Shown: one piece after another, positions 3,362 to 64,000 of the stretch
Numbering within the stretch: the first letter of the stretch is position 1
Layout of the letters: the number at the start of each line of letters is the position of its first letter
IMG/VR virus record: IMGVR_UViG_3300021387_000075
DNA: 64,000 nt
From: a virus
Lineage: Duplodnaviria > Caudoviricetes
Reading direction: 5' to 3' (one strand)
Notes under the pieces: generated by a model
Database searches by the model: none
The model's input: only the letters and a program-made list of their open reading frames with translations
Told to the model about the DNA's origin: nothing
Program-made: the position numbers and the translations under genes

Positions 3362-4651
3362 TCAAATACTTAATTGTAATAATTCATCATATTCTTCATC
3401 TGAAATAATTTGAGTGGCGATATTTCGCGGTAGATAAACTGGCATTCGTTTCTCACGATTATGCGCCCGATAATAGGTATTCCAATAATAGGTATTCGCA
3501 AGCATATTGGCGCGATGCATCCAACATATATTAGTACTGCGTTTATTGTAAGAGCCAGTTTCCTAGTAGTTCCACGCGCTACACCATGCACACCCTGCGG
3601 CGATAGGGCAATCTATACATTCTTGCGTAGATTGAGATTGTCGCGTAACCTTTTGCATATCATCATATATAGCTTTAGTTTCAGGAGTGTTATAAATACC
3701 ATCAGCATTTCCAATAATTATTGGCTCACGATCTGTGCCAAGGGAACTCGGCATATAACGTAAGCACGGATAAGCTTTTCCTTCTGGATCAAATGCTAAC
3801 ATAGCAGATGTGCCACCGCACCAATTCCAAGTATCAGTCGATAATAGAGGACGGCCACGATTCTCAGCAAATAATGAACTTTCTGCGCCTTCAGTTTGTA
3901 AAAGTCGTTCGGCTAAGCGAATTAGAATACAATAATATAATTGTGCTTCTTCAATTGTCCATTTATGCTCGAATACAGGATTGGCATGAATTGTTTTACA
4001 ACCTTTACTAAGAAAAAAATCAAATATGTCTTCCATTAACTCTAAGTTTTCGGGCGAAATAGTTACCTTAGTATCCAAAGGATTGGTTCCAATTGTATGA
4101 TACCAGTGTTCCCACGCAGCCATAGCTTTATCAAAACTACCATTACCATCATAATCTACACGGCATAAGTCATGTACTTTCTTAGGGCCATCAATAGTAA
4201 CATTCATGCTTAATAAATTTTTATACTTCTAAATAAAATGCTATACTTGCGGCTAAAAATAAAGAACACCATTAGTACTAATTGAAATACGAAAGTTTGT
4301 AAGCCAAATATGATCTTTCTCTAAGCATTGTTCAATAAAGTAATCGACAATATAATCCATTACTTCAACATTCATAAAAGGTTCGCCGCCAATGAAATCT
4401 AGAATAACACCGTATGTATGATGATTTATAACAGAGTTTTCTTTATTTTCATCATAAAGTTTAAATAATAAATCAACAATTCGTTTACCGGTTTCCTTAG
4501 ACATCATAGCATGACCTTTATGGCCCTGATAACAGTAAGAACATTTAAGACAGCAGTCATCGGTTACTTGAAAAGTAATATTGCGACATATAGCCTTGGG
4601 ATCTTCTTCTATATATCTATGAATTACTTCATCAGAATAATCTTTACTCAT
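3362..4651 (-). CDS. radical SAM/SPASM peptide maturase, CXXX-repeat target family (TAG recoded, 429 aa)
   Basis: CCLKCSYC (CxxxCxxC), FIGGEP, and SPASM cysteines (CGG..YPC..CIDC..CAWC); ORFs 4253-4651 and 3563-4207 join in frame through TAGs (LYF*PQV*HFI*KY; WNY*ETG). Confidence 0.9.
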
Positions 4652-14070: not shown

Positions 14071-17000
14071 TTAAAATATGAAGTCGAGAGACTAATCAGT
14101 TGTATTATATTGTAATGTTACATGTCCTGCTACATTATATTTAGTAGCATACAAGAAGCCATTTAAATTTAATCTATCTGTCCTTGTTGGGGCAGTAGTT
14201 GAAGTATCGAAACTTAATTTAGCTTGCTATGCTGTATATGGAGCATATGTTATAGCTGTACCGGAATTAGAACCATCTAAGATATTATCTGTAGCAGTGG
14301 CGGTATTATTATCTGCAGGAGTCTTAAAAATAACAGACTTGCCACCAACGGTTAAGGTATAAGCAGTATTTACGGATAAATTGACTGTCGCGGTACCGCC
14401 AGATGCAATTGTCGGGGCGGCAGAAAGATTGGTTGCGGTGGTTGCAGTATCTGCGTTACCCTATAAAGCTCCAATAAATTTATCAGCCTTAGCATTTCCA
14501 TTAACTGTTAATAGTGTGTCTGGCGTGAGCGTTCCAATTCCAACTTTTCCATCAGACGTTATTAACATACGGGTATAAGCGCCATTAGCAAAAGAACCAG
14601 TAGTCGCGAAATGTAATCTTAATCCATATGCACCTGAGGACTACCAGTAAATTCCACCATATGAAGAAGTATCAGTACCAATTGTAATACCACCTGCATT
14701 ACCATCATTAATTCCTGCTCCAGAACCTGATCCAACTGTAAAATGTAAATCTTTAATTGCAGTACCAATTTTATGATTAGTATCAATTCCTAGTGCCGAC
14801 GCCGCAGTTTGTTTTAAAATATTAGACCAAGTATTATCTCCACGATAAAAGACTTTTGTTGTATTGGCGGCATTATCTTTAAATTTAGTTGCTGTGGCTG
14901 CATTACCGGTACATGATTCGGCGCTGCCGCTAATATTCCCTATAATTGTATTAGAAAATGTTTTTATTCCAGCAATCGTCTAATCTTGATATGTGTTTGT
15001 TAAATCTTCTGGAGCAGGAAACCAAGTCTATGATCTATTAGTACCGCGTACAACCACTATGTCGGATAAAGTAACAGTAGCATTATAAGTACCTTCAAAA
15101 TCAACAAATCCATAAGCAGAATTATTATAATAACATGTTCCAGACCAAAAAGTCCAAGATTTATTTGCAGAAATATCAAAGTTGCCTACGCTTGTATCAC
15201 TAATATTAACATTAATAGTAGTACCAGAAGAATAATTTTCAACTTTATACCAAAAACTAATTGAATAGTAACCGGCGGCTTCGGCTTTATAAGGATTATC
15301 TGAATAATTTGAACCGCCTGAAAATACTATTCTATTTAAATTACCAGAAGTTAATTGTTTACCATGGGTCCATCTAAATCCAATAATTGAGGAGCTATAT
15401 ACATTACGTGCAATTAAATTACGCATACCGCAAGTCTAATAATAATTGGCGTCTTGATTATTTAATTTATTCGCGTTAGTTGAATAAGGTACGGTAAATG
15501 CATCGCTTGTTTTTCCACCTGCTGTTACTGTTATATTATTGTCACTTGCTGCGAGTGAAGGTTTAGCAGAAAGGTTAGTTGCAGTAGTTGCTGTTGTGGC
15601 ATTACCAGAAAGATTGCCACTAAATGTTCCACTAGTAGTTCCACTAATGGTTAATCCAGTTGTTGCCGCATTAATGCGAACATCATAATCTGCAGTATTT
15701 CCGTCAGTTGTATGAAAGTCAATATATTTTCCGACTTCTAATACACCATCGCTACCTATAACGGGAACTAATCCCCAAGTATCTTTTGTGCCCGCTGGAG
15801 CAGCATTGTATGTAGCTATAGAACCTAATCCTAAATTAGTTCTAGCATTTGCGGCAGTAGTGGCACCGGTTCCGCCGTGGTCTATTGCAACAGTACCTGT
15901 AACATTTGCAGCAGTGCCACTTACATTCCCCGTAACATTGCCAGTTACATTTCCTGTAACGTTACCAGTCAATGGGCCACTAAAACCGTTTGCAGTTATT
16001 ACTCCAGTAGAAGCAGTAACATATACTCCACTAATATATTTTGGAATACCATCAGCAGCATTAGTAGACGATACCCAAATATTATGTTGTGAAGTATCAG
16101 TTAAAGCTCCTAAATTACCATTAATACGGCTAGCGGTATCTGCATTACCTTTAAATGCTGAGGCATACAAATAGCCATTAGACGTATCATATCTTAAGGC
16201 ATTATCATAACTATTTTCAGTTCTAGTACTAGCCGAACCCATTAAATAAAATGATGTCCCTAGAGTACCAAAACTAAACCAGCGTCCAACTTTTGCAGAT
16301 TCCGCACCAGATGCCCAAGTATTAGTTGCTCGTATCCAAGGATTGTAACTGCCAGTATTTGAATAATCAGCTATATTAAGCGCTCCATTCTAATAACGTT
16401 GTCCATCAATCCATGATGAAGGAGTGAGGACTCCATTAAATTTTGTAGAATAAATAGTTGCCCATCTATTATCAGAAGCTCCTAAGTTTTGTTTATTATT
16501 ATTCGCCGCTTCTGCTTTTTGCGGTATGATACTGCCATTGGTATCAATTGCAAGCCCTATACGATTCGCAGCAGCATCTGCATAGGCATATATATAAACA
16601 TTCGAATCCGCGCTTAAAAATAAATTTTCACCACTAAAAGTTGAACCTTTGGCAGAATAAATTGTAGATGCAGATTCACCTGCACCAATAAATGTATTTC
16701 CACTAGAATTTATAACCATATTAGCATTATAAGTTGTAGTATGATCATTATAAACTGCTATATATGCTGCAGAAGTGGCAATTGATTTATCTGTATCTAT
16801 TACTGTAAAATTAATTCTTGCTGGATAGTTCTAAGCAGTAGTGCCTGAGCGATACAATGTTAATTCATTAGAAAAGCGTCCTATACCATTTACATCTAAT
16901 AAGTAAGCAGGAGAAGTGGTACCAATACCAATTTTTCTATCTGCCGCCATAAATATGGCTGTGGATAATGTTCCACCTGTACTAGAGCTCCAATCTGTAC

Positions 17001-54840: not shown

Positions 54841-56187
54841 ATGGGCGTACCTAGTATTACTACTGTATCAGACCTATATTCCGAAGGGAAATTGAAATTC
54901 CAGAAGGGTCTGTTTAATATAATAAACTGCGGCGTTCGTACTGGTAAAACATATTGGGCCGCGCATCATTTAGTGGATTACACCAGAGATGGCTTATACA
55001 ATAGAATTTTAATTTTGACAGACACAACCGCGCTGAAAGATTAGATTATTTAGGACTACGAAGAGTGCTGTAATGCAGATATTTTTTGGCGGCCGGGCGC
55101 AACCTGGGGTGAGGCCCCAAACCAAATAGGTATTATGTGCTACCAGAAATTCGTTTATATGCTGCTAGAAGATTCCAGCTTCTTAGACGACTTAGATGTC
55201 ATATGTTGGGACGAATGTGATGCTATATTTAACTTCGCGTCCTCAGCTTTTACGCGCGCCCGCAAGACGGACTTCGCGCGCAAGGATATGTCTAACAGTG
55301 AGGTACTGGCGCACATACAAGCAGCTTCTACCAAGCCAGAGTATATGCCACTGGTCCTGTTAGGACTATGGGAGAAGATTATTCAGCATCAGGACATTTA
55401 CTGTATTGGGCTTTCAGCTACGCCCGAGCGCGCCATTGCTTACTACAATGTGCTTACAGGCGCGAGCTACAAAGGAAAGATTGATGCGGGATACAGGTTT
55501 AAAGATGACATTTATTTCACTAATGTATTGGAGCATATAAAGACATTGGAGCCCGAGCAAGGGCACGGGTACTGGTGTTTCTCTCCATACATAGAACCCA
55601 ACAAGGGCATAGTTGCAGCTGCTGAGCGCCAAGGTTTTAAGGCGATAGAGATTCACTCTCTTAGCAATACAGACAAGCCTATGAATGCCGAGCAGCGGCG
55701 TGTCTATGATAGCATTATCCATACCCATATCATTCCACCGCCTTACGATTTCGTGGTAGTGAATAATGCGTTAAAGACAGGAATTACAATAGAGGATACG
55801 CGCTTCGATCATCTCATTGTTAATTCCTTCCGTCCCGAAGACAAGGAACAAGCAGCTCGTATGACCTTTCCCTATTAGCGGCATCAGCGTGTATGGTTGC
55901 CGCAAATCCCAGAAGAATACAGGGATACGTGGCTTACAGTACAGCAATGTAGGGAGCTTGCGGAGCAGCTTGCTGTGTCCGACCTGGATAGGGCGCATAA
56001 GAATAGCGCGAAAATACTAACGTGGAACAGCTTAAAGGACGTATTGCCGCTGGCGGGCTACACAGTGGAATGCTCGCGCAAACGCCTTAATGGCAAACAG
56101 ATGCAGTGCTATAAAATTAGCGGAGAATGGCACGACATTGATATGGTGGATCAGGAATTTGAGGAGCTTTTAGAAGCACATAAATAA
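54841..56187 (+). CDS. superfamily 2 helicase-like protein (TAG recoded, 448 aa)
   Basis: GVRTGKT Walker A, WDECD Walker B, SAT motif III; three listed ORFs in one frame joined across three TAGs. Confidence 0.85.
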
Positions 56188-56219
56188 AAAGGGCAGCTTA
56201 CGCTGCCCTTTATTTTTTT
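56187..56219. terminator. bidirectional intrinsic terminator
   Basis: AAAAGGGCAGC-TTAC-GCTGCCCTTTT between convergent genes. Confidence 0.75.
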
Positions 56220-56430
56220 AACACTCCACAGTCAAATCATCGTTAATAGTGACGGGGCCACCGAAGACATCTTCCAGGTCAATCAGACGGTACGGCGTGA
56301 TGTCAAAGCATTCGGGCCGCCTCATTCCAGCTCGCGCCAGCGCCGCAGCTTCCCAGCTCGCATACAGCTGACCCTCATATACCAGCTCGCACTCCTCAGA
56401 ATTTACAAAGTCCAGCGCATAATACATCAT
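56218..56430 (-). CDS. hypothetical protein
   Basis: 70 aa with its own promoter at 56466-56494. Confidence 0.65.
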   Translation of the reverse strand: MMYYALDFVNSEECELVYEGQLYASWEAAALARAGMRRPECFDITPYRLIDLEDVFGGPVTINDDLTVEC

Positions 56431-56465
56431 TTCCAGCTTACCCCTTTCTCTCTCTTTCTGTAAAA

Positions 56466-56522
56466 ATTATACCCTAAATTTGAGAAAAAGTCAAATATGT
56501 ATACTGTATACAACGGGCCGGC
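56466..56522 (-). promoter_or_regulatory. SigA-type promoter, TACTGTATACA operator-like box and GCCGGC junction
   Basis: TTGACT (56494-56489), 17 nt, TATAAT (56471-56466); box 56502-56512; GCCGGC 56517-56522. Confidence 0.75.
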
Positions 56523-56568
56523 TTAAAAATAAGAAAGGAGCCCACTTGCGTGGGCTCCTTGTAATTAC

Positions 56569-57057
56569 TTACGCCTTCGTGTAATAGGTTTTCTTGTCGT
56601 TTTCCTTAACGGAGGGAACTAGCACGCCCTTCTCCACTAGACGCTTCGCGGCGGAACCGACCTGCATTACGAGTACGTTATCAGCAACGGACTTGCCTAG
56701 CGCATTGCGAATGTCGGTAGCGGTGTACTCAGCGAAAGCGGGTAGAGCGGCAATCTTAGCATCTAGCTCATCACGGCGAGCCTGAGCTTCGGGATTGGGG
56801 CCCTTAGGAGCCTTTGGACGAGCAGCGCGCTCGGCAGCTTTCAGAGCAGACTCAGCTTCCCAGGCCTTATACTCAGCGACAGCAGCTTCCATATTGAAAG
56901 CAGCGTGGTTCTTGGTGTCCTTGGCTAGTGCGACCTGCACAGAAACCTTAGCGACACCGTCTTCACAGGGGACGACGATAAAGTTAGTCTTGTTGGCGCG
57001 GGCATTCTGAGCGCCTTCGATACCGGTTAGGATGGTTTTCAGTTCATTAATAGTCAT
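56569..57057 (-). CDS. hypothetical protein with possible C-terminal winged helix
   Basis: 162 aa; AGGAG RBS; terminator at about 56535-56560. Confidence 0.75.
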   Translation of the reverse strand: MTINELKTILTGIEGAQNARANKTNFIVVPCEDGVAKVSVQVALAKDTKNHAAFNMEAAVAEYKAWEAESALKAAERAARPKAPKGPNPEAQARRDELDAKIAALPAFAEYTATDIRNALGKSVADNVLVMQVGSAAKRLVEKGVLVPSVKENDKKTYYTKA

Positions 57058-57165
57058 TTTTTACTCCTTTTTACTCTTGGGTTTAGTTACGGCAGACCCA
57101 CCTGCACAAATTTTTTATTTCGTTCTCTTGGAACACTTATATTATATCAGAAATTTGCGGAAAAG

Positions 57166-57336
57166 TCAAATGTTTGGTTCGAGAAAACTTGGAATCCAGT
57201 AGTAAATTTTTCCAGCATTTGCAGCTTCGAGGTCTAGGCACATTTGTTCAGCTTGCGCCAAACTTAAAGTTACACATTCAATTCCAGTTTCTGGGGAATC
57301 TTCCAGCTCCCAGACGATAACATAACATCGTTCCAT
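57166..57336 (-). CDS. small hypothetical protein (56 aa)
   Basis: AGGAG RBS and a consensus promoter at about 57365-57393. Confidence 0.55.
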   Translation of the reverse strand: MERCYVIVWELEDSPETGIECVTLSLAQAEQMCLDLEAANAGKIYYWIPSFLEPNI

Positions 57337-57552
57337 TTTCCAGCTCCTTTCTCTTTACACTATAATTATACACGAAATTTGCGCGAAAGTCAAATACTTG
57401 ATAAATGTTTTTTGGATACAATCCGCAGCTTTCCAAATTTTGCCTCGAATTTTCACGCCGACGGAAATTCAGCTTGCGGCGGGTCCTTATGTTCCAATAT
57501 GTGGGCCGAATATCGCAGCTCGCCGCAGGCCGAAAATCGGTGGAATCGATTT

Positions 57553-57654
57553 TTCCAGCTTCCAGCTCGTATAGAGTTTCCAGCTTCCAGCTGCTCCGTT
57601 GATTTCTCGGGGCAACTTCCAGCTTCCAGCTTCTTCCAGCTTCCAGCTTGCAGC
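57553..57654 (+). repeat. TTCCAGC heptamer repeat cluster
   Basis: Eight exact copies plus one TTGCAGC in about 100 bp, all on the same strand. Confidence 0.85.
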
Positions 57655-57725
57655 TTATTATACTAGGGGCCCACGTAAGTGGCCTGGCGCCTTATGGGAT
57701 AAGGCTCGGGCGCAGACTCGGTGCC

Positions 57726-57786
57726 GTAACACTTGTGTAACAGGGTCGTAACACTTCTGTAACAATTTCGTAACAAAAATTTAACA
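57726..57786 (+). repeat. six (G/T)TAACA hexamers at exact 11-bp spacing
   Basis: Starts at 57726, 57737, 57748, 57759, 57770 and 57781. Confidence 0.9.
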
Positions 57787-57797
57787 ATTGCGAGGGC

Positions 57798-57826
57798 TTG
57801 ACTTGCGCTCGGCGGTGTGATAGAAT
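57798..57826 (+). promoter_or_regulatory. SigA-type promoter with extended -10, facing into the cassette array
   Basis: TTGACT, 17 nt, TG-N-TAGAAT. Confidence 0.7.
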
Positions 57827-57894
57827 ATAATGGGGGAGAAGAGGGGTTGGACGGGCCGGCTAAAAATTGGCCGGCTAGTCGGGCCGGCCCGAGG

Positions 57895-58086
57895 TTAGCT
57901 TGCGCTAACCTCTTCGATAATAACGTTGGTAAGTTTATATACTTTAGTCATATCAAATTTACATCCGCACTTATCACAAGTACAAGTCCACCACTGTTCG
58001 CCACCGAATTGGTCGAAGCTATCGCCATAGTCATTTACCTCATAGTCTTCACACCCGCATTTTGGGCAAGTTTCACTGTACGCCAT
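57895..58086 (-). CDS. small zinc-ribbon protein
   Basis: CPKCG..CDKCG; GGAGG RBS. Confidence 0.65.
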   Translation of the reverse strand: MAYSETCPKCGCEDYEVNDYGDSFDQFGGEQWWTCTCDKCGCKFDMTKVYKLTNVIIEEVSAS

Positions 58087-58423
58087 TTTCTTTTTCCTCC
58101 TTTTCCTTCGCTCTACGTTCCTTATCCTTCCGTGCCTTTTCGGCACGAGCCTTGGCATCGGCTTCCTTCTTCGCCTGCTTAGCGTTGTACTCGTCAATTT
58201 CCTTCTGCATAAGCTCTTCGGCGGTCATGTCCTCACGCTCTTCGGCAACAATAGCGCCGATACGCACGTAGCGCTGGACGCCATTCAAATCGGTCAGGAG
58301 AACGCCATACTGACGATCATTGACTTTGGTATAAGCGTAGTCAGTCGGATATCCGTGGAAAATATCCGCAAAGACTTTATCACGCAGTTCCTGATTGACA
58401 ACAGTAGTAGAAATCTTAGCCAT
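58073..58423 (-). CDS. hypothetical protein with Lys/Glu-rich C-terminal helix
   Basis: 116 aa; own promoter; architecture similar to 63413-63820. Confidence 0.75.
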   Translation of the reverse strand: MAKISTTVVNQELRDKVFADIFHGYPTDYAYTKVNDRQYGVLLTDLNGVQRYVRIGAIVAEEREDMTAEELMQKEIDEYNAKQAKKEADAKARAEKARKDKERRAKEKEEKENGVQ

Positions 58424-58479
58424 CTCAATTCCCTTTCTGGTTTGGGGTGTTTTCCTTCACCTTTCATAAGTATTATATA

Positions 58480-58713
58480 TCATTCGGTTAGGCTTGTCAA
58501 GTCTTTTTTCACATTTTCTAATAATTTATAGAAGAAATTTCGGTTGTGCCATTTAAGTTGAAATTGCTTCGGGTCTATAAAGCTCTGTTCGGCACATTGA
58601 TAATTAGTACACCAGTAAAGTTTTTTAGTCTCCTCATAATATATCCAGTCATAACCATGCGCTTTAACCCAAGCATCGGGGCATCCTACCCCTTTGTATC
58701 CATATGTTATCAT
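58480..58713 (-). CDS. hypothetical protein
   Basis: GAAAGGA RBS; promoter with TGTTAC-N5-TGTTAC upstream. Confidence 0.6.
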   Translation of the reverse strand: MITYGYKGVGCPDAWVKAHGYDWIYYEETKKLYWCTNYQCAEQSFIDPKQFQLKWHNRNFFYKLLENVKKDLTSLTE

Positions 58714-58912
58714 AAGTTTCCTTTCTTTCTCTTCATCTTTCATATATATTATAACCTAAAATTTGTTACAAGTCAATAGTTAATTGTGTTACAATTCTGT
58801 TACAAATTCGCGGGCCGGCGGGCGAAAACTTAACACATTTGTAATAATTTTGCTATTGATTCGTAATTGCTTTTCTGCTATAATAAGAGCGTGGAAAGGA
58901 AGGTGCTAAGAG

Positions 58913-59413
58913 ATGCGTAACACTTACGAAGTTCGGGCTGAGAAGTTCATCCATCAGATTTTTAACTATATCTGGGAGTGCGAAAATGTTGATGACTATG
59001 AGTGGGCGGTAAATCACTTCAATTTCGAACACCACCGCAACGTGAAGGTGGTCCACGGCCTGACTCGGGTGGCGCTGATTACCTCTGACTATGTGGTGAA
59101 GATTGATTGCGGTCGTGCCCACGATCTGGATACGTTCGGCGGTTGTGCCAACGAGTTCGATATCTACGCACAGGCCGAAGAGGATGGCTTCGCCTACCTC
59201 TTCGCTAAGCCCACAGAGGTTGTATATAATGGCCTGACCTTCTGCGTGATGCCCCGTATCCGTGGCATTGAGCGTGAACCTAATGACGCTGATTGGTATA
59301 TGAGCGCCGAAGAGTGCGACTGGGTTTGTGAGCGGGTGTTTGATCTCCATAATGGAAATTATGGTTGGAAAGATGGCCATCCTGTACTGATCGACTATGC
59401 GGCGAATTGCTGA
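58913..59413 (+). CDS. protein kinase-like fold protein
   Basis: G.TR.A..VVKI, NE, VMPRI, DLHNGNYG catalytic loop, LIDYA; promoter TTGATT (58856)-17-TATAAT (58879). Confidence 0.8.
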   Translation: MRNTYEVRAEKFIHQIFNYIWECENVDDYEWAVNHFNFEHHRNVKVVHGLTRVALITSDYVVKIDCGRAHDLDTFGGCANEFDIYAQAEEDGFAYLFAKPTEVVYNGLTFCVMPRIRGIEREPNDADWYMSAEECDWVCERVFDLHNGNYGWKDGHPVLIDYAANC

Positions 59414-59592
59414 TGTTAGCTTCGGCTAACATTGGCCGGCGCGCCGTTGGATACTGTATACAATAGAAGCGCAAAGAAAAATCCCCACGATTGCCTGCGT
59501 GGGGTCAGTCTCCATCTCGTTTATTGTTTGCCCAACGAGAAAGGGCATTCTGGAAAGGGGCTTTAAGGTTCAACCCCTTAGAACCTCGGGCA

Positions 59593-59913
59593 TTAGCCCT
59601 TGAGGGTGTAGGCGTTGACCTTGCCCTCAATCTTCTCGACCTCATTGGCCCAGTAGTTCCGCAGACCGTAGACGATCTTGCCCTTGGCGTAACCAGTCTC
59701 GTCCGCCAGTTCCTGAGCGGTCACGGGAGCGGTAGCGGACTTCAGAGTCTCGATGACCGCATCGTGAATCTCCTCGTAGATTGCCCGATTCGCCTGCGCC
59801 TTAGTCTCACCCTTGGCCAGTTCGGCAACGATCTCGTCATAAACATTCATCAGTTCGGCGATGTTGTGGTCGTTGATGTAGGAAGCGATGGTCTGCATAG
59901 TGGATTTCTTCAT
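59593..59913 (-). CDS. hypothetical protein with C-terminal winged-helix motif
   Basis: PVTAQELADETGY.KGKIVYGL; GAAAGGA RBS. Confidence 0.7.
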   Translation of the reverse strand: MKKSTMQTIASYINDHNIAELMNVYDEIVAELAKGETKAQANRAIYEEIHDAVIETLKSATAPVTAQELADETGYAKGKIVYGLRNYWANEVEKIEGKVNAYTLKG

Positions 59914-60293
59914 TGTATAATTCCTTTCTGGTTTTTTAAGAGTTTTCCTTCTCTTCATCTTTCGTAGTTATTGTATCATAAGTTTGGAAGTTTGTCAAGA
60001 GGTTTCCGAAAATTTTCTCCCTTTTATTTTCGGTCAAGAGAATCATCGGGTCTTGCGTTTCCATGGAGATTTGTTTCCGCTCCCGTTCTCCCTCTCAACA
60101 TCCTTATTATATCAGATTTCGGGGAGTTTGTCAAGGGTTTTTTCAACTTTTTTTCAAAGTTTTTTTCGCCCTCGGGAAGCTCGCTCCCTTCACCTGACAT
60201 ATATAATTATACTCGAAATTCGGAAAAAGTCAAGCACTTTTTTTGAAGAATACTGTATACAATCGCGGGCCGGCCAAAATGGACCGAAGTCCA

Positions 60294-60431
60294 TTATAGC
60301 ACGAATCGAACAATCGGACGATCTTTCTTAGAGTACCGAGCAAACACCATAAACCGCAACCAGAGGGCTTTCATTATGGGAAGATAGCGGACAGTCTGTT
60401 CTCCTTCAAGGTTTTTCAGATACACATTCAT
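60294..60431 (-). CDS. small hypothetical protein
   Basis: 45 aa with GGAGG RBS. Confidence 0.45.
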   Translation of the reverse strand: MNVYLKNLEGEQTVRYLPIMKALWLRFMVFARYSKKDRPIVRFVL

Positions 60432-60591
60432 TTTGATGTTCCTCCTTCAAGAAAAAGCTGAAATCATTCATAATACATTCATAAGCGAAAAAGCAACTTT
60501 CGTCCGCATGGCACAGGGCGCATTTCCTGCACTTGCTTGAATTGGCTACGACTTCCCACAAGTAGGCATTGAGTGTTTCCATAGTTTCCAT
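60406..60591 (-). CDS. small Cys-rich protein
   Basis: CRKCALC..CFFAYEC; AGGAG RBS. Confidence 0.6.
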   Translation of the reverse strand: METMETLNAYLWEVVANSSKCRKCALCHADESCFFAYECIMNDFSFFLKEEHQNECVSEKP

Positions 60592-60684
60592 CTCCTTTCA
60601 ACATAGACATTGTATCATAGAAAAGGAAAACTGTCAACAGGAAAATTATTACAAAAGTATTAAATCGTGCCGGCGCGAAAGGGC

Positions 60685-60918
60685 TTACGCCCTTTCGTCA
60701 TACAAAGTAAAATCATCAACCTCACGCACAAAGCCGCAAGCATTGTCAATGAAGGTAAAGCCATTATCTTTGGCTTTGAGAATCAAATCATTCATATCCT
60801 TGCGAAGGATCGCTTCTTCACGCTTACGGGTGCGGATAGCACGAAGATTGTTAATAATGGTAGTCAGTTCCTCATCACTCATGTTGTCTGTGTCAATCAT
60901 AATCTTGCCAATTCTCAT
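60685..60918 (-). CDS. hypothetical protein
   Basis: 77 aa, sole gene of its cassette, with promoter and RBS. Confidence 0.7.
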   Translation of the reverse strand: MRIGKIMIDTDNMSDEELTTIINNLRAIRTRKREEAILRKDMNDLILKAKDNGFTFIDNACGFVREVDDFTLYDERA

Positions 60919-61018
60919 TCGGGGTACCTTCCTTTCCTTTCGATACTTATATTATACTCACTTTTGCGCCAATGTCAATAGGAAAATTATTACAATTCTG
61001 TTAAATGCGCCGGCGGCC

Positions 61019-61684
61019 TCACTTGGAAGCCTTGGCACGCAAGGCTTCCAAGCATTTAGTAAAAATCTCTTTTTCAATTTCTACATCTTTAAGTCCTGTA
61101 TGTGATTCAACAAAGTCATTGTTCTTACTAATATATCTCCAAAGCACTTCTGCGGTGAAGCGAGGGCGAGGGGTGGCGTGGTTTGTCATGTATCCGTTTT
61201 CCTTACAGAACGCAATATATTGTGGGTCATTACCAAATACTTTCTTAGACAGTTTCAAGCTGTCAATAACTTTCATCCCATAGGGCAAGAAATACCGCTT
61301 TCGGGATTTAGTCTGGTAACGCATAGTGGCGTTAAGGGTTTGGATATCAAATCTGGAATTGTGTGCCACCACCGCCTGAACGTTGTACTTTTCGCACAGT
61401 TCTTTTACCGTATTATACATGCCCCACGTATCCACGATTTTGTGATTACCCATCCGCATGTCTTCAATGTATTTCGGGATTTTTTCGGCATAATATGCAT
61501 CCTGCATCTGTTCGGGCATCCGAAAGAAAACATCCTCATTAATGACGCTGAAACGTGCTTTCTCCTCCCCATACTCATTGATTACCGCACCGCCGAGATC
61601 ATAGACCTGACCGTTTTTTACATCCAGTTGTCCATCTACTACGGGAGTGTTACAAGTTTCGCTATCAAATACCAAGAAGTTCAT
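61019..61684 (-). CDS. DEDDh 3'-5' exonuclease (DnaQ-like)
   Basis: VFDSET, AHNSRFD, DSL, HTGLKDV. Confidence 0.88.
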   Translation of the reverse strand: MNFLVFDSETCNTPVVDGQLDVKNGQVYDLGGAVINEYGEEKARFSVINEDVFFRMPEQMQDAYYAEKIPKYIEDMRMGNHKIVDTWGMYNTVKELCEKYNVQAVVAHNSRFDIQTLNATMRYQTKSRKRYFLPYGMKVIDSLKLSKKVFGNDPQYIAFCKENGYMTNHATPRPRFTAEVLWRYISKNNDFVESHTGLKDVEIEKEIFTKCLEALRAKASK

Positions 61685-61820
61685 TGGAGTTACCTTTCTG
61701 GTTTGCGTTGTTTTCCTTCAACTTTCAAGTATGATTATACCACGGAAAATAGAAATGTCAATAGGTATTTTGTTACAAAAGTATTAAATCTGCGGGCCGG
61801 CCGAGTTAGCGAGTGCTAAC

Positions 61821-62090
61821 TCATTTGAGAAAGCACTCATACCAAGCATAGTCGCCCCACGTGCCATTATTTACTACCTCGGTCTTATAGTCTTCCCACG
61901 CCTGCTCTTCGCCCTCTTCGGTGTTGGGGTAATCTCGATCTTCAACCCAAGAGTTGAAGTCCCGTTCTACAAACCAACCATAACGGCGCTCATCCAACCA
62001 TTTGAAACATTCGTCCATAACTTTATCGAAATCAGTATAGGCAACCTGCGGTTCGCCTTCAAGAGTAATGACATAAATACGAGTAGCCAT
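61821..62090 (-). CDS. hypothetical protein
   Basis: GGAGG RBS; acidic and Trp-rich. Confidence 0.65.
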   Translation of the reverse strand: MATRIYVITLEGEPQVAYTDFDKVMDECFKWLDERRYGWFVERDFNSWVEDRDYPNTEEGEEQAWEDYKTEVVNNGTWGDYAWYECFLK

Positions 62091-62101
62091 ATTATCCCTC
62101 C

Positions 62102-62359
62102 TTAGCAATCATCGGTATACATTCCAAGATAAGGGTCAAAGCCCATATCATAGTCTTCATCATAGTTATCATCGGGAGTATCATCATAGGAAAGCCATTC
62201 GTCCCACGAGTCGAAGAACATTGCGAAGTCCTCGCAATCTTCCATTGGGTCATCAATGTGGCACACGTTGCACTGGTCGCAATAGGGGCAAGCGCCATAA
62301 GCATTGACAGTGCAGTAAGTGGTTTCACCGTTGTAAGTTCCCTGTTTTGCGTCTCTCAT
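62102..62359 (-). CDS. Cys-rich acidic hypothetical protein
   Basis: C..CPYC..CH..C; GFDPYLGMYTDDC terminus. Confidence 0.7.
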   Translation of the reverse strand: MRDAKQGTYNGETTYCTVNAYGACPYCDQCNVCHIDDPMEDCEDFAMFFDSWDEWLSYDDTPDDNYDEDYDMGFDPYLGMYTDDC

Positions 62360-62514
62360 ACTAATACTCCTTTCAATCTGGCTCTGGCCTGTTTCCGTAA
62401 GCGCTTTTTCAGTTTCCGCATAGAGGGTGTGCTCTGGTTAATCCACTTGCGGCATCCTTTATCTAAATCCCAAGCGGCGAGTTCATCAAACTTCTTGTAT
62501 CTCGCTCTCTGCAT
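62356..62514 (-). CDS. small basic hypothetical protein
   Basis: 52 aa with GGAGG RBS; overlaps the next start (ATGA). Confidence 0.55.
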   Translation of the reverse strand: MQRARYKKFDELAAWDLDKGCRKWINQSTPSMRKLKKRLRKQARARLKGVLV

Positions 62515-62609
62515 CTCTCATCCCTCCTGACACTATTTATTATACTCAGATTTGAAAAAAAGTCAATAGGTAAAATTGTTAAGTTTTTGTTACGCGCCGG
62601 CCGCCCGCC

Positions 62610-63299
62610 TCACTCCTCATCGAGTTCGGCAAGGCGTGCCATTTTCTTATGCCTGCGGACGCACTCTGCGAAAATCTGCGCTTCAATTTGTACATCCTCT
62701 AACCCCGTGTGACTTTCTTCAAAGTCATTGTCGTTGGTCAGAAAGCGCCACAGAATTTCGGCAGTCTTACGCACCTGAGGGGTCTTGTGGTTGGTCATAT
62801 ATCCATTCTCTACACAGAACCGCCGATAGTTGGACTGCTTGCAAATGGTATCATTCGCCATAGTCATAGTATCCCAAATCGGGATACCATACGGGAAGAA
62901 AAATCTACGCTTGCTCTTGGTCTGATACCGAAGGGTTGAGTTTAAAACCCTCACATCAAATCTGGCATTGTGGGCAATGAAAGCCTTGATTTCATACTGT
63001 GCCACGAGTTCCCGCACAATCTTATACAGTTGCCAAGTATTGACGATCTGGCGCTTGCCCATCCGAATATCGGTTAAGTACTGGGGAATTTTATCCGCAA
63101 AGTATGCTTCACGCATAGCTTCGGGCAGTCCGAAGAATACATCTTCATTCACAAAGGACATTTCCTTATACACAAAGCCCTCATTGTCTACGATTTGAAG
63201 GCCGAAGTCATAAACCTGACCGCAAGTCGTGTCTAACTGTCCGTCTACCTTCGGGGTGTTACAAGTCTCAGTATCAAATACCATATACAGATTCTTCAT
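62610..63299 (-). CDS. DEDDh 3'-5' exonuclease (DnaQ-like), paralog of 61019-61684
   Basis: VFDTET, AHNARFD, DTM, HTGLEDV. Confidence 0.88.
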   Translation of the reverse strand: MKNLYMVFDTETCNTPKVDGQLDTTCGQVYDFGLQIVDNEGFVYKEMSFVNEDVFFGLPEAMREAYFADKIPQYLTDIRMGKRQIVNTWQLYKIVRELVAQYEIKAFIAHNARFDVRVLNSTLRYQTKSKRRFFFPYGIPIWDTMTMANDTICKQSNYRRFCVENGYMTNHKTPQVRKTAEILWRFLTNDNDFEESHTGLEDVQIEAQIFAECVRRHKKMARLAELDEE

Positions 63300-63412
63300 T
63301 GCGTTTCGCTCCTTTCAACATAGCCATTATATCACTTTATAGGATGCGTGTCAACCCCTTTTTGAAAAAAATTTTCGCGCCGGCCCGTTAGTCACGACTA
63401 ACAAGAAAAGGG

Positions 63413-63820
63413 TCACGCCTGGGGCGTGACCTTAATCTTGCGGAGTTCCTTCAACCCCTTGTTTGCTTCCGCAAGGGCTTTCTTTTCCTCACGGGCTTTC
63501 TGGTCTTTGGCAATCTTGGCCTGCTTCTTCTCTTCGGCCTTGGCTTTCTTCTGCGCCTTTTCTTCAAGGTCAATCTGGTAATCTTCGGCGACAGAATAGC
63601 CATCATAAGGGATGTATCCACCGTTGCCATCACGAGCGCCACGAGGGATAGACACCTTAATCACCGCCCACGTTTCATTGCCATCGGGATCAAGGCAAGG
63701 CACCGCAATCTCGTTGGCGCTCACCGCAAGCGCATCCGTGGCCTTTTCGGTTTCAATCGCCTTAGCAATCAGGGACAGGAAGTCGTTACGAATCGTGGTT
63801 TCCATCTGGGCTTTAGTCAT
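63413..63820 (-). CDS. hypothetical protein with Lys/Ala/Glu-rich C-terminus
   Basis: 135 aa; AGGAG RBS; two tandem promoters upstream. Confidence 0.75.
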   Translation of the reverse strand: MTKAQMETTIRNDFLSLIAKAIETEKATDALAVSANEIAVPCLDPDGNETWAVIKVSIPRGARDGNGGYIPYDGYSVAEDYQIDLEEKAQKKAKAEEKKQAKIAKDQKAREEKKALAEANKGLKELRKIKVTPQA

Positions 63821-64000
63821 CTAACATCGCTCCTTTCGTTCTTACAGGAAGATTGTATCACACTTTGTCGGGGTTGTCAAGGGGTTCTTGAAGATTTTTT
63901 TCGATCTTCTTTCCTCTTGATCTGGATATATTATACTATAAATTTTGAAGTTTGTCAAGAATTTTTTTAAAAGAATACTGTATACAATTTTGGCGGGCCG

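Follow-up and report, generated by a model that had tools for sequence, protein, structure and literature searches.

Regulatory cassettes organised around a promoter-early stem-loop (PeSL) have been described in T4-type phages (Arbiol et al. 2010, PMC2839356; Comeau et al. 2014, PMC4122927). Here, we study an arrangement that resembles them at the right end of a stretch of rumen phage DNA of 64,000 nucleotides (nt; IMG/VR record IMGVR_UViG_3300021387_000075), the whole of which is called the window in the following. That is, between 56.2 and 64 kb the window carries an array of small gene units that are joined at intergenic copies of the palindromic hexamer GCCGGC.

Other systems provide further points of reference. 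Integron cassettes are mostly promoterless and expressed from a common promoter (Pc); they need the tyrosine recombinase IntI, and their attC sites are imperfect palindromes of 57-141 nt that act as folded single strands. For phages, Botstein reportedly put forward in 1980 a modular theory of evolution with 'linker' sequences, and Clark et al. are said to have described lambdoid 'boundary sequences' in 2001. Finally, the host-takeover module of SPO1, the pre-early region of T5 and the class I region of T7 are first-entering early regions adjoining the genome end, for which, to our knowledge, no junction palindrome has been described.

The boundary hexamer and the breakpoints around it

The studied region forms the inner end of a longer array of early genes, which totals about 19-25 kb and runs past the window end (the contig L009 adds 9.3 kb). 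Using an exonuclease of the array as query, we obtained eight viral contigs, among which L001 is closest (67% amino-acid (aa) identity; 133-kb contig, handle G001, 76% complete). The close relatives L009, L010, L011, L012, L013 and L014 result from a metagenome scan. L009 shares 83-97% nt identity with the window over colinear blocks, while L012 and L014 show about 80%. Neither blastn of the region against GenBank phages nor an exact 35-mer scan of viral contigs yielded a match.

GCCGGC occurs 16 times in the window compared to 7.5±2.6 times in dinucleotide shuffles (0/100 reach 16). Twelve of these copies are found in the array (56.5-64 kb), where 1.0 is expected from composition, and all twelve are outside of predicted genes. 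The first-pass annotation of the window, which had listed these 12 positions and proposed an array of cassettes joined at them, was exact for each. The motif is also confined to one module of the genome, given the counts above and the 133-kb contig G001, where all 33 GGCCGGCC sites are within one block of about 25 kb (92,969-118,333). Over four arrays, we count 12, 25, 33 and 45 copies compared to 1.0, 2.1, 2.1 and 7.7 expected ones, i.e., a 6-16x excess. The number of copies corresponds to one per unit boundary and not to one per promoter. Since promoters without hexamer are either internal or come second or third in a tandem, the hexamer marks unit boundaries rather than promoters.

On the minus strand, a junction opens with the stop codon of a gene or a hairpin, continues with GCCGGC(S)CG and an A/T-rich box (about 25-35 nt), and leads via a TTGACA-17-TATAAT promoter and a Shine-Dalgarno sequence to 1-3 small genes. 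In L001, this grammar is found 27 times in 20.7 kb, there as tCGG-GCCGGC-CMG. Fifteen minus-strand promoters of the window's array match 11-12 of the 12 consensus positions (sigma-70-type), and the array holds 36 promoter-like sites compared to 13.4±3.7 in shuffles. The hexamer precedes the first -35 box of its unit by 22-38 nt in the window and by 10-49 nt in G001. The distance from a stop codon to the next hexamer is 4-28 nt in 8/9 junctions with a mapped gene and 152 nt in the other one; the junction at 57883 relies on an unverified small open reading frame (ORF). With these promoters and spacings, the cassette grammar proposed earlier is borne out on the minus strand, and the units are real, self-contained cassettes. 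The promoter modules form repeat families of 45-50 nt with 60-100% identity to the reference copy. Within the 12 nt before the hexamer, a hairpin of -8 kcal/mol or below is observed at 64-83% of the sites compared to 31-46% of control positions. A T-run is present at only about 1/4 of the sites, and canonical terminators (hairpin plus T-run) are not enriched in the array (9 vs. 8.4 in shuffles). The hexamer is the sharp 5' edge of every cassette.

The exact sequence of the hexamer is under constraint. Among 21 orthologous junctions from pairs that are about 80% identical, the hexamer is conserved to 86-90%, while positions -2, +7 and +8 reach only 52-57%. Variants of GCCGGC with one mismatch do not exceed expectation in three arrays and are close to it in G001 (146 vs. 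132). In the window's clade, covariation of the flanks as a longer palindrome is not seen, on which basis an extended 12-bp (base pair) palindrome or hairpin around the hexamer was rejected there; for G001, only the pair (-1,+6) covaries.

In a sister lineage, the same slot is occupied by another hexamer. CCCGGG is over-represented in L048, L058, L052 and L030 (20 vs. 1.0, 17 vs. 0.3, 13 vs. 0.4 and 13 vs. 0.7, respectively). It is placed in the order hairpin, 1-5 nt, hexamer, box and promoter, mostly as GCCCGGGC, and 67-85% of its copies are preceded by a hairpin. Per locus, the two hexamers exclude each other (0-2 copies of the minority type); the two minority GCCGGC copies of L030 are likewise found in junction slots. 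Including their flanks, the lineage-specific junction forms, i.e., GGCCGGCC in the window's type and GCCCGGGC in the sister lineage, are one symmetric base-pair swap apart and can be written as G-S-CCGG-S-C. Many units of the sister lineage also show a different promoter-like box (TTTTGTACAATTTACCATCTTG...).

For a comparison of gene content, loci were split at GCCGGC and the resulting units clustered. Among the seven close loci compared, these unit maps reveal gain, loss, replacement and reordering of whole units on a conserved backbone. One complete additional cassette (with promoter, gene, terminator and one hexamer) is present in L009, where homology to the window ends exactly on the hexamer 57883-57888 at both sides. 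The slot between the units F04 and F05 has three alternative contents, and homology resumes exactly at 60274. In one slot, L009 and L012 carry unrelated cassettes that share only a 35-nt module after the hexamer. In L013, 5/5 rearrangement joints are on hexamers, among them those at 61796-61801, 62596-62601 and 63379-63384. Of 200 distinct ends of high-scoring segment pairs from the seven loci, 27% are within 10 nt of a hexamer centre compared to 3.4% for a uniform null. Block starts (in direction of transcription) fall within ±10 nt of a hexamer in 48/115 cases (42%). Block ends are more diffuse, i.e., 17/97 are within ±10 nt, 9 are in the -35 box (+31 to +45) and many others inside genes. 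That is, the hexamer is a preferred boundary for the gain, loss, replacement and reordering of non-homologous cassettes among close relatives.

Other exchanges do not involve the hexamer. The 77-aa gene at 58480-58713 is missing from L009 and L010 via a crossover in repeated sequence of the -10 box and 5' untranslated region (5'UTR). Per-unit identities with L011 form a mosaic (99.8 / 98.5 / 86.0 / 99.0%), in which the middle and 3' part of unit 3 is an exchanged allele with 86% identity to L011 and L009 compared to 98-99% for the neighbouring units. Its divergent tract, bounded inside genes, extends from 250-350 nt past one hexamer to about 100 nt short of the next. Between the window's clade and that of G001, no recent cassette transfer is seen, and similarity is confined to coding cores (64-78%). 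Ordinary homologous recombination thus acts wherever homology exists. For the exchange of non-homologous cassettes, the junction module (hexamer plus box) is the only shared sequence, with the hexamer as its sharp 5' edge. The earlier expectation that relatives break at GCCGGC is therefore right for the joints of L013, the insertion in L009 and 42% of block starts, and wrong for the breaks in the -10/5'UTR sequence, the -35 box and genes. Inversion of cassettes, which had also been suggested, found no support, as no polymorphic inversion is seen among the relatives compared.

The core of the hexamer is rare elsewhere. CCGG outside of hexamers occurs once in the window's array compared to 17.4 expected copies, while the late region has 52 compared to 85. 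For the coding DNA of the array (5,280 nt, 16 genes), synonymous-codon shuffles provide 9.6±2.5 copies of CCGG (1 observed) and 20.4±3.7 of CGCG (4 observed), where 0/1000 shuffles are as low in either case; GCGC is normal. A like pattern is seen in L009, L012 and L058. L048 and L030 show no such depletion, and that of CCGG is only weak in G001 (81 vs. 120), which has 45 hexamers, whereas the hexamer-free loci L002 and L008 are about 3-fold depleted. The depletion is hence not strictly tied to hexamers. Deamination was considered as its cause and left no clear signature. The loss of CCGG and CGCG resembles restriction avoidance concentrated in first-entering DNA, which makes the retention of one G-CCGG-C per boundary more striking.

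Units, cargo and genomic setting of the array

Following transcription on the minus strand, the part of the array within the window starts with the hexamer 63995-64000, which is cut by the window end and complete in the near-identical contig L009 (site 9297). Unit 1 (63413-63958, minus) combines a ATACTGTATACAA box (63975-63987), tandem promoters (63958-63930 and 63880-63852), a 135-aa gene (63413-63820) and a terminator (63431-63411). Beyond the hexamer 63379-63384, unit 2 (62610-63354, minus) has a promoter (63354-63326) and a 229-aa DnaQ-like exonuclease paralogue (62610-63299), 8 nt past the stop of which the hexamer 62596-62601 is found. Unit 3 (61821-62566, minus; promoter 62566-62539) encodes proteins of 52, 85 (Cys-rich) and 89 aa. 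It is followed by the hexamer 61796-61801 and unit 4 (61019-61761, minus) with promoter 61761-61734 and the second exonuclease paralogue (221 aa, 61019-61684), which ends 4 nt before the hexamer 61009-61014. Unit 5 (60685-60978, minus) holds a promoter (60978-60951) and a 77-aa gene. Past the junction hexamer 60669-60674, unit 6 (60294-60637, minus; promoter 60637-60609) carries genes of 58 (Cys-rich) and 45 aa; its slot is filled by other cassettes in L009 and in L012/L014. At the following hexamer (60269-60274), homology with L009 and L012 resumes exactly, and an extra unit (F21) is inserted in L012/L014.

Unit 7 (59483-60262, minus) is composed of a ATACTGTATACAA box (60250-60262), promoters at 60233-60206, 60134-60106 and 59998-59970, a 106-aa winged-helix-like gene (59593-59913) and a terminator (59504-59483). 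Its neighbour, unit 8 (58856-59430, plus), is the sole inverted cassette, has hexamers on both sides and comprises a promoter (58856-58884), a 166-aa gene (58913-59413) and a GTTAG-N6-CTAAC palindrome (59415-59430). The hexamer 59435-59440 between both units marks a convergent junction without promoter, i.e., it is located between the end of the plus-strand gene with its GTTAG palindrome and the minus-strand terminator. On the other side of unit 8, the single copy 58814-58819 is common to divergent promoters (minus 58776-58748, plus 58856-58884). Unit 9 (57895-58776, minus) contains the promoter 58776-58748 with a 77-aa gene (58480-58713), the promoter 58500-58472 with a 116-aa gene (58073-58423) and a palindrome (57894-57909). 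It is followed by three hexamers (57855, 57870 and 57883, spanning 57855-57888), where the last two pair to a 7-bp G+C hairpin with T-run on the minus strand (57889-57869). Units 10-12 (56218-57393, minus) have promoters at 57393-57365, 57169-57141 and 56494-56466, genes of 56 aa (57166-57336), 162 aa (56569-57057) and 70 aa (56218-56430), and a terminator at 56560-56535. The last hexamer of the array (56517-56522) is upstream of the promoter 56494-56466. A bidirectional terminator (56188-56211) closes the array against a TAG-containing helicase gene (54841-56187, plus).

Several further repeats adjoin the hexamers. ATACTGTATACAA has four exact copies compared to 0.29 expected (56501-56513, 59451-59463, 60250-60262 and 63975-63987), all next to hexamers. 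Three of them precede promoters, where those at 63975 and 60250 precede tandem-promoter units, and the copy at 59451 is without promoter. A second palindrome, GTTAG-N6-CTAAC, adjoins hexamers at 57894-57909, 59415-59430, 61805-61820 and 63387-63402 and has many copies in L001, where it sometimes spans the -35 box (GTTAGgcTTGACTAAC) in an operator-like manner. The three near-consensus tandem promoters of unit 7 (59970-60233, minus) are without intervening ORF before the winged-helix-like gene, and its paralogues in L009 are arranged likewise; this could be promoter stacking or a source of short non-coding transcripts. A gene-poor stretch (57553-57656 and 57725-57775) contains TTCCAGC heptamer repeats (six CCAGCTBCCAGC compared to 0.44 expected) and GTAACA repeats phased by 11 bp, and AGCTGG-type repeats are found near the array end of L001 (about 15400-15520). 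This gene-poor stretch may be an origin or iteron-like region. In L009 (1100-1640), there is a promoter with GCCGGC in its -35/-10 spacer; no ORF comes after it, and several CTTTAGCAnnCTAAAG palindromes are located further downstream. Such spacer-embedded hexamers are also seen in L012 and four times in G001.

Most of the cargo is without Pfam or PHROG match. The two DnaQ-like exonuclease paralogues correspond to phrog_20187; the nearest cultured relatives of the exonuclease are from SPO1-like Enterococcus phages of about 140 kb (34% identity), while phAss-1 is a distant match. The 106-aa protein of unit 7 (59593-59913, minus) belongs to a family of about 108 aa that lacks a Pfam or PHROG match and has four paralogues per array in L009, L012 and G001 (L009: 5062-5388, 7370-7693, 8897-9226 and 13718-14035). 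Its structure model (predicted local distance difference test score of 88.7) places a long helix before a winged-helix-like C-terminal domain, and it matches winged-helix DNA-binding domains weakly (best E 5e-3; Zα root-mean-square deviation 1.6-2.0 Å over 62-73 columns). The model thus supports a winged-helix fold. Cys-rich peptides are also among the cargo, and the extension in L009 adds a nucleotidase-like and a T5orf172 protein. Of the cargo assigned in the first-pass annotation, the two exonucleases and the winged-helix protein were recovered, the latter by the model; a kinase-like protein was not reproduced using Pfam and PHROG.

Outside of its right end, the ORFs of the window are fragmented under translation table 11. 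Reading TAG as Gln restores ORFs of 3120 aa, 1974 aa and other minus-strand genes, and a tRNA with anticodon CTA is located at 2799-2887. The tape-measure-like ORF of 3120 aa and tail-fibre/lectin domains match the phAss-1 group, i.e., TAG-recoded siphovirus-like gut phages with a tape measure of about 3150 aa and predicted Clostridia hosts (PMC10607447). Judged by its gene content, the source appears to be a phAss-1-like siphovirus that uses TAG as an amino acid in late genes, and its host is probably a member of the Clostridia. The array differs from the rest in composition, with a G+C content of about 0.42-0.47 (56.2-64 kb) compared to 0.33-0.42 elsewhere in the window and half the TAG density. 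As noticed before, its cargo is free of in-frame TAG: there is none in 16/16 genes, and no TAG stop either (9 TGA and 6 TAA on the minus strand, TGA for the plus-strand gene). The early array thus uses the standard genetic code. It is probably transcribed by the host RNA polymerase.

At the other end of the window, a cluster of seven tRNAs (349-2887) includes the CTA-anticodon suppressor (labelled Pyl by ARAGORN). Two of the four non-array GCCGGC copies (1622 and 2458) are between genes of this cluster. A gene for a radical-SAM/SPASM-type enzyme (3362-4651; matches to Fer4_12 and Radical_SAM) is only seen with TAG read through.

Readings of the junction

We lean towards a PeSL-like exchange that relies on short homology within a common junction module, combined with a hexamer that is kept by a sequence-specific reader. 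Here, recombination would be driven by homology or microhomology across the module (hexamer plus upstream box). It could make use of general phage functions, e.g., a Sak4-type annealase, or of replication slippage between direct hexamer repeats, such that a dedicated recombinase would be unnecessary. G001 encodes a Sak4-type AAA_24 protein (E 1.3e-48; gene with in-frame TAG), while RecT and RecA are absent from it. The strict palindromic, lineage-specific hexamer (GGCCGGCC, or GCCCGGGC in the sister lineage) would in turn be kept at unit boundaries by a phage- or host-encoded protein. Such a sequence-specific reader is the most likely cause of the hexamer's conservation, because its exact sequence is constrained, CCCGGG takes its slot in the sister lineage and CCGG is nearly absent elsewhere. 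The first-pass annotation had taken GCCGGC for the crossover core of a site-specific or microhomology system; its microhomology half fits better, whereas the site-specific half is not supported, given the absence of recombinase matches in G001 and the many breaks off the hexamer.

Several points weigh against this account. Position alone leaves the hexamer unproven as crossover substrate, since selection for intact units would likewise leave breakpoints in the short spacer from the hairpin of the upstream gene to the box of the downstream promoter, and six base pairs are very short for homologous recombination. About half of the block ends are more than 50 nt away from any hexamer, and a change-point of identity at hexamers is significant in only 1/5 pairs. 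Such an array can exist without the hexamer, because hexamer-free relatives share the promoter-dense architecture (26-31 promoters per 20 kb in the distant relatives L002 and L008, 24 in phAss-1). The near-absence of CCGG in the rest of the array is unaccounted for by a PeSL-like model. Finally, no reader protein was found, and among the loci compared no protein family tracks the presence of the hexamer.

Three candidates for the reader were rejected. A 216-aa cargo protein of L009 (5690-6340) has a T5orf172 domain (GIY-YIG superfamily; E 1.7e-5, above the Pfam cut-off) and is not found in five relatives (G001-G005), so it does not track the motif. For a family of about 150 aa downstream of the spacer-embedded hexamer, the hexamer is in ordinary position in L009. 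A family of 52-61 aa is confined to G001-type and CCCGGG-type loci and absent from the window's clade.

If the hexamer were purely a regulatory or boundary site, i.e., bound by a repressor, an activator or an insulator, breakpoints could cluster there via selection for intact terminators and promoters. We consider this unlikely but a serious competitor. A mere transcription-factor site, which the first-pass annotation had named as an outcome that would refute its proposal, may indeed be why the hexamer is conserved. One copy per unit boundary instead of per promoter would suit such a site, as would the other lineage-specific palindromes in the same slot (TTAGACGT-N3-ACGTCTAA in L003, TTGTGCAA boxes in L005/L007, CCCGGG in L048/L058) and the copies inside of -35/-10 spacers, where a bound protein would repress. 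The array also encodes four paralogous proteins that are winged-helix proteins according to the structure model, and allelic exchange inside genes proceeds without the hexamer. The distance to the -35 box varies, however, over the ranges given above without helical phasing, a bacterial operator would usually be longer than a bare palindrome of 6-8 bp without covarying flanks, and exact hexamer-to-hexamer joints with unrelated DNA beyond recur too often to ignore the shared sequence. The varying distance also rules out class-I activator geometry. A Chi-like hotspot was rejected as well: Chi is asymmetric, orientation-dependent and spread, whereas the hexamer is palindromic, strictly intergenic and present once per unit boundary.

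With rather little confidence, one may go further and regard G-S-CCGG-S-C as the recognition site of a lineage-specific, dedicated reader similar to a restriction enzyme, which standardises cassette boundaries in first-entering DNA. If so, GGCCGGCC and GCCCGGGC would define separate compatibility groups. Cassettes would be cut and rejoined (compatible CCGG ends) or marked only at these sites, which would explain the purge of CCGG. The result would be a natural 'standard-junction' system of gene shuffling, distinct from both integrons and PeSLs.

A dedicated site-specific recombinase or nuclease that recognises the same site and excises, inserts and inverts cassettes in an integron- or homing-like manner is an account we would be surprised to see confirmed. 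An exact, palindromic and lineage-specific core would be expected of it; decayed copies are not in excess, the homology around the L009 insertion ends precisely on the hexamer at both sides, one slot holds different cassettes in L009 and in L012, and unit 8 is inverted between hexamers. Against this stand the many breakpoints elsewhere in the junction module or in genes and the lack of any polymorphic inversion. Furthermore, the first-pass hypothesis of such a system lost ground in the enzyme searches. G001 (133 kb, 76% complete) shows no match to tyrosine or serine recombinases (PF00589, PF00239) or C5-methylases (PF00145), and the annotated array genes of both the window and L009 include no integrase. 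For NgoMIV- and NaeI-type nucleases (PF09015/PF09126), G001, G004 and G005 have no match, where control genomes are equally silent. The T5orf172 cargo protein is absent from G001-G005, and no protein family is exclusive to hexamer-bearing lineages among the loci compared.

Lower still we rank the possibility that a restriction/modification enzyme of the CCGG family, encoded by host or phage, acts on the hexamers, which would serve for cut-and-rejoin, as an epigenetic mark (injected vs. replicated DNA) or as the only cut points tolerated in first-entering DNA. NgoMIV cuts G^CCGGC and XmaI cuts C^CCGGG, so a 6-bp palindrome with CCGG core and lineage-specific outer base pair has the appropriate form. 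In addition, CCGG has nearly gone from the remaining array, where its depletion is much stronger than in late genes, and CGCG is depleted too. Depletion and hexamers are nevertheless separable, as seen for G001 on the one hand and the hexamer-free L002 and L008 on the other, and deamination left no clear signature. Retaining as many as 12-45 cleavable sites would as a rule be lethal, and neither a methylase nor a nuclease of these families is found in G001 (with silent nuclease controls).

Least probable is the view of the hexamers as leftover or functional halves of G+C-rich terminator stems, with terminating pairs and singles as remnants: the hairpin and T-run of the doublet 57869-57889, doublets 12-39 nt apart in relatives and a long G+C hairpin with GGCCGG and T-run at the equivalent position of L005/L007 would agree with it, but most copies are single with no stable hairpin possible, the flanks do not covary, remnants would decay while variants with one mismatch are not in excess, and a G+C-rich stretch just past a hairpin stabilises the RNA-DNA hybrid and thus opposes intrinsic termination. 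By the same reasoning, and by reasoning only, the hexamer was rejected as a booster of intrinsic terminators.

Comparison with known systems

What the locus shares with integrons is a series of small mobile units of diverse cargo, where each boundary bears a recombination mark. It differs in that every unit has its own near-consensus promoter, the mark is an exact palindrome of 6-8 bp without structural covariation, and no integrase is seen (PF00589 search of G001; annotated array genes).

The likeness to phage linkers is that of short conserved sequences between modules, which allow for the exchange of non-homologous modules by homologous recombination. In lambdoid phages, these are few and debated, while here one exact, constrained motif is found at essentially every boundary (12-45 per array). 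So far, there are few clean examples of short linkers that let phages swap unrelated genes. Since close genomes differ by whole cassettes joined at the hexamer, the process becomes measurable event by event.

In layout, the array is similar to the early regions of SPO1, T5 and T7, i.e., dense short operons with strong host-type promoters and terminators and small genes of mostly unknown function that are expressed before phage-specific transcription. The sigma-A dependence of early SPO1 transcription is mentioned in PMC13401047. For SPO1, the likeness extends to the exonuclease via its nearest cultured relatives. The TAG-recoded phage group of gut and rumen has no cultured member and no described early biology. 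The constraint on the hexamer, the sister hexamer in its slot and the scarcity of CCGG point to a sequence-specific protein that acts on first-entering DNA, and identifying this reader would reveal the way in which host-takeover genes are organised, insulated or diversified in these phages.

The likeness to PeSLs covers a composite intergenic motif of stem-loop, A/T-rich upstream region and strong sigma-70-type early promoter, its concentration in a plastic region rich in small ORFans, and motif-bounded indels and replacements between close relatives, where each cassette has its own promoter and terminator (termination being predicted here). For both, exchange is attributed to homologous recombination. 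PeSLs belong to T4-type phages with several hyperplastic regions, while we observe one contiguous, presumably terminal array in what appears to be an unrelated, TAG-recoded phAss-1-like siphovirus with a probable Clostridia host. Given this resemblance and the 3120-aa tape-measure-like ORF, the array would work like a PeSL system without being a member by descent. PeSLs have no such core, and crossovers between them are assigned to their A/T-rich part, whereas an invariant palindrome of 6-8 bp is located here at the exact 5' edge of the cassette, with another hexamer in the sister lineage. What is new with respect to PeSLs is thus an exact, lineage-specific boundary hexamer that is added to PeSL-like cassettes.

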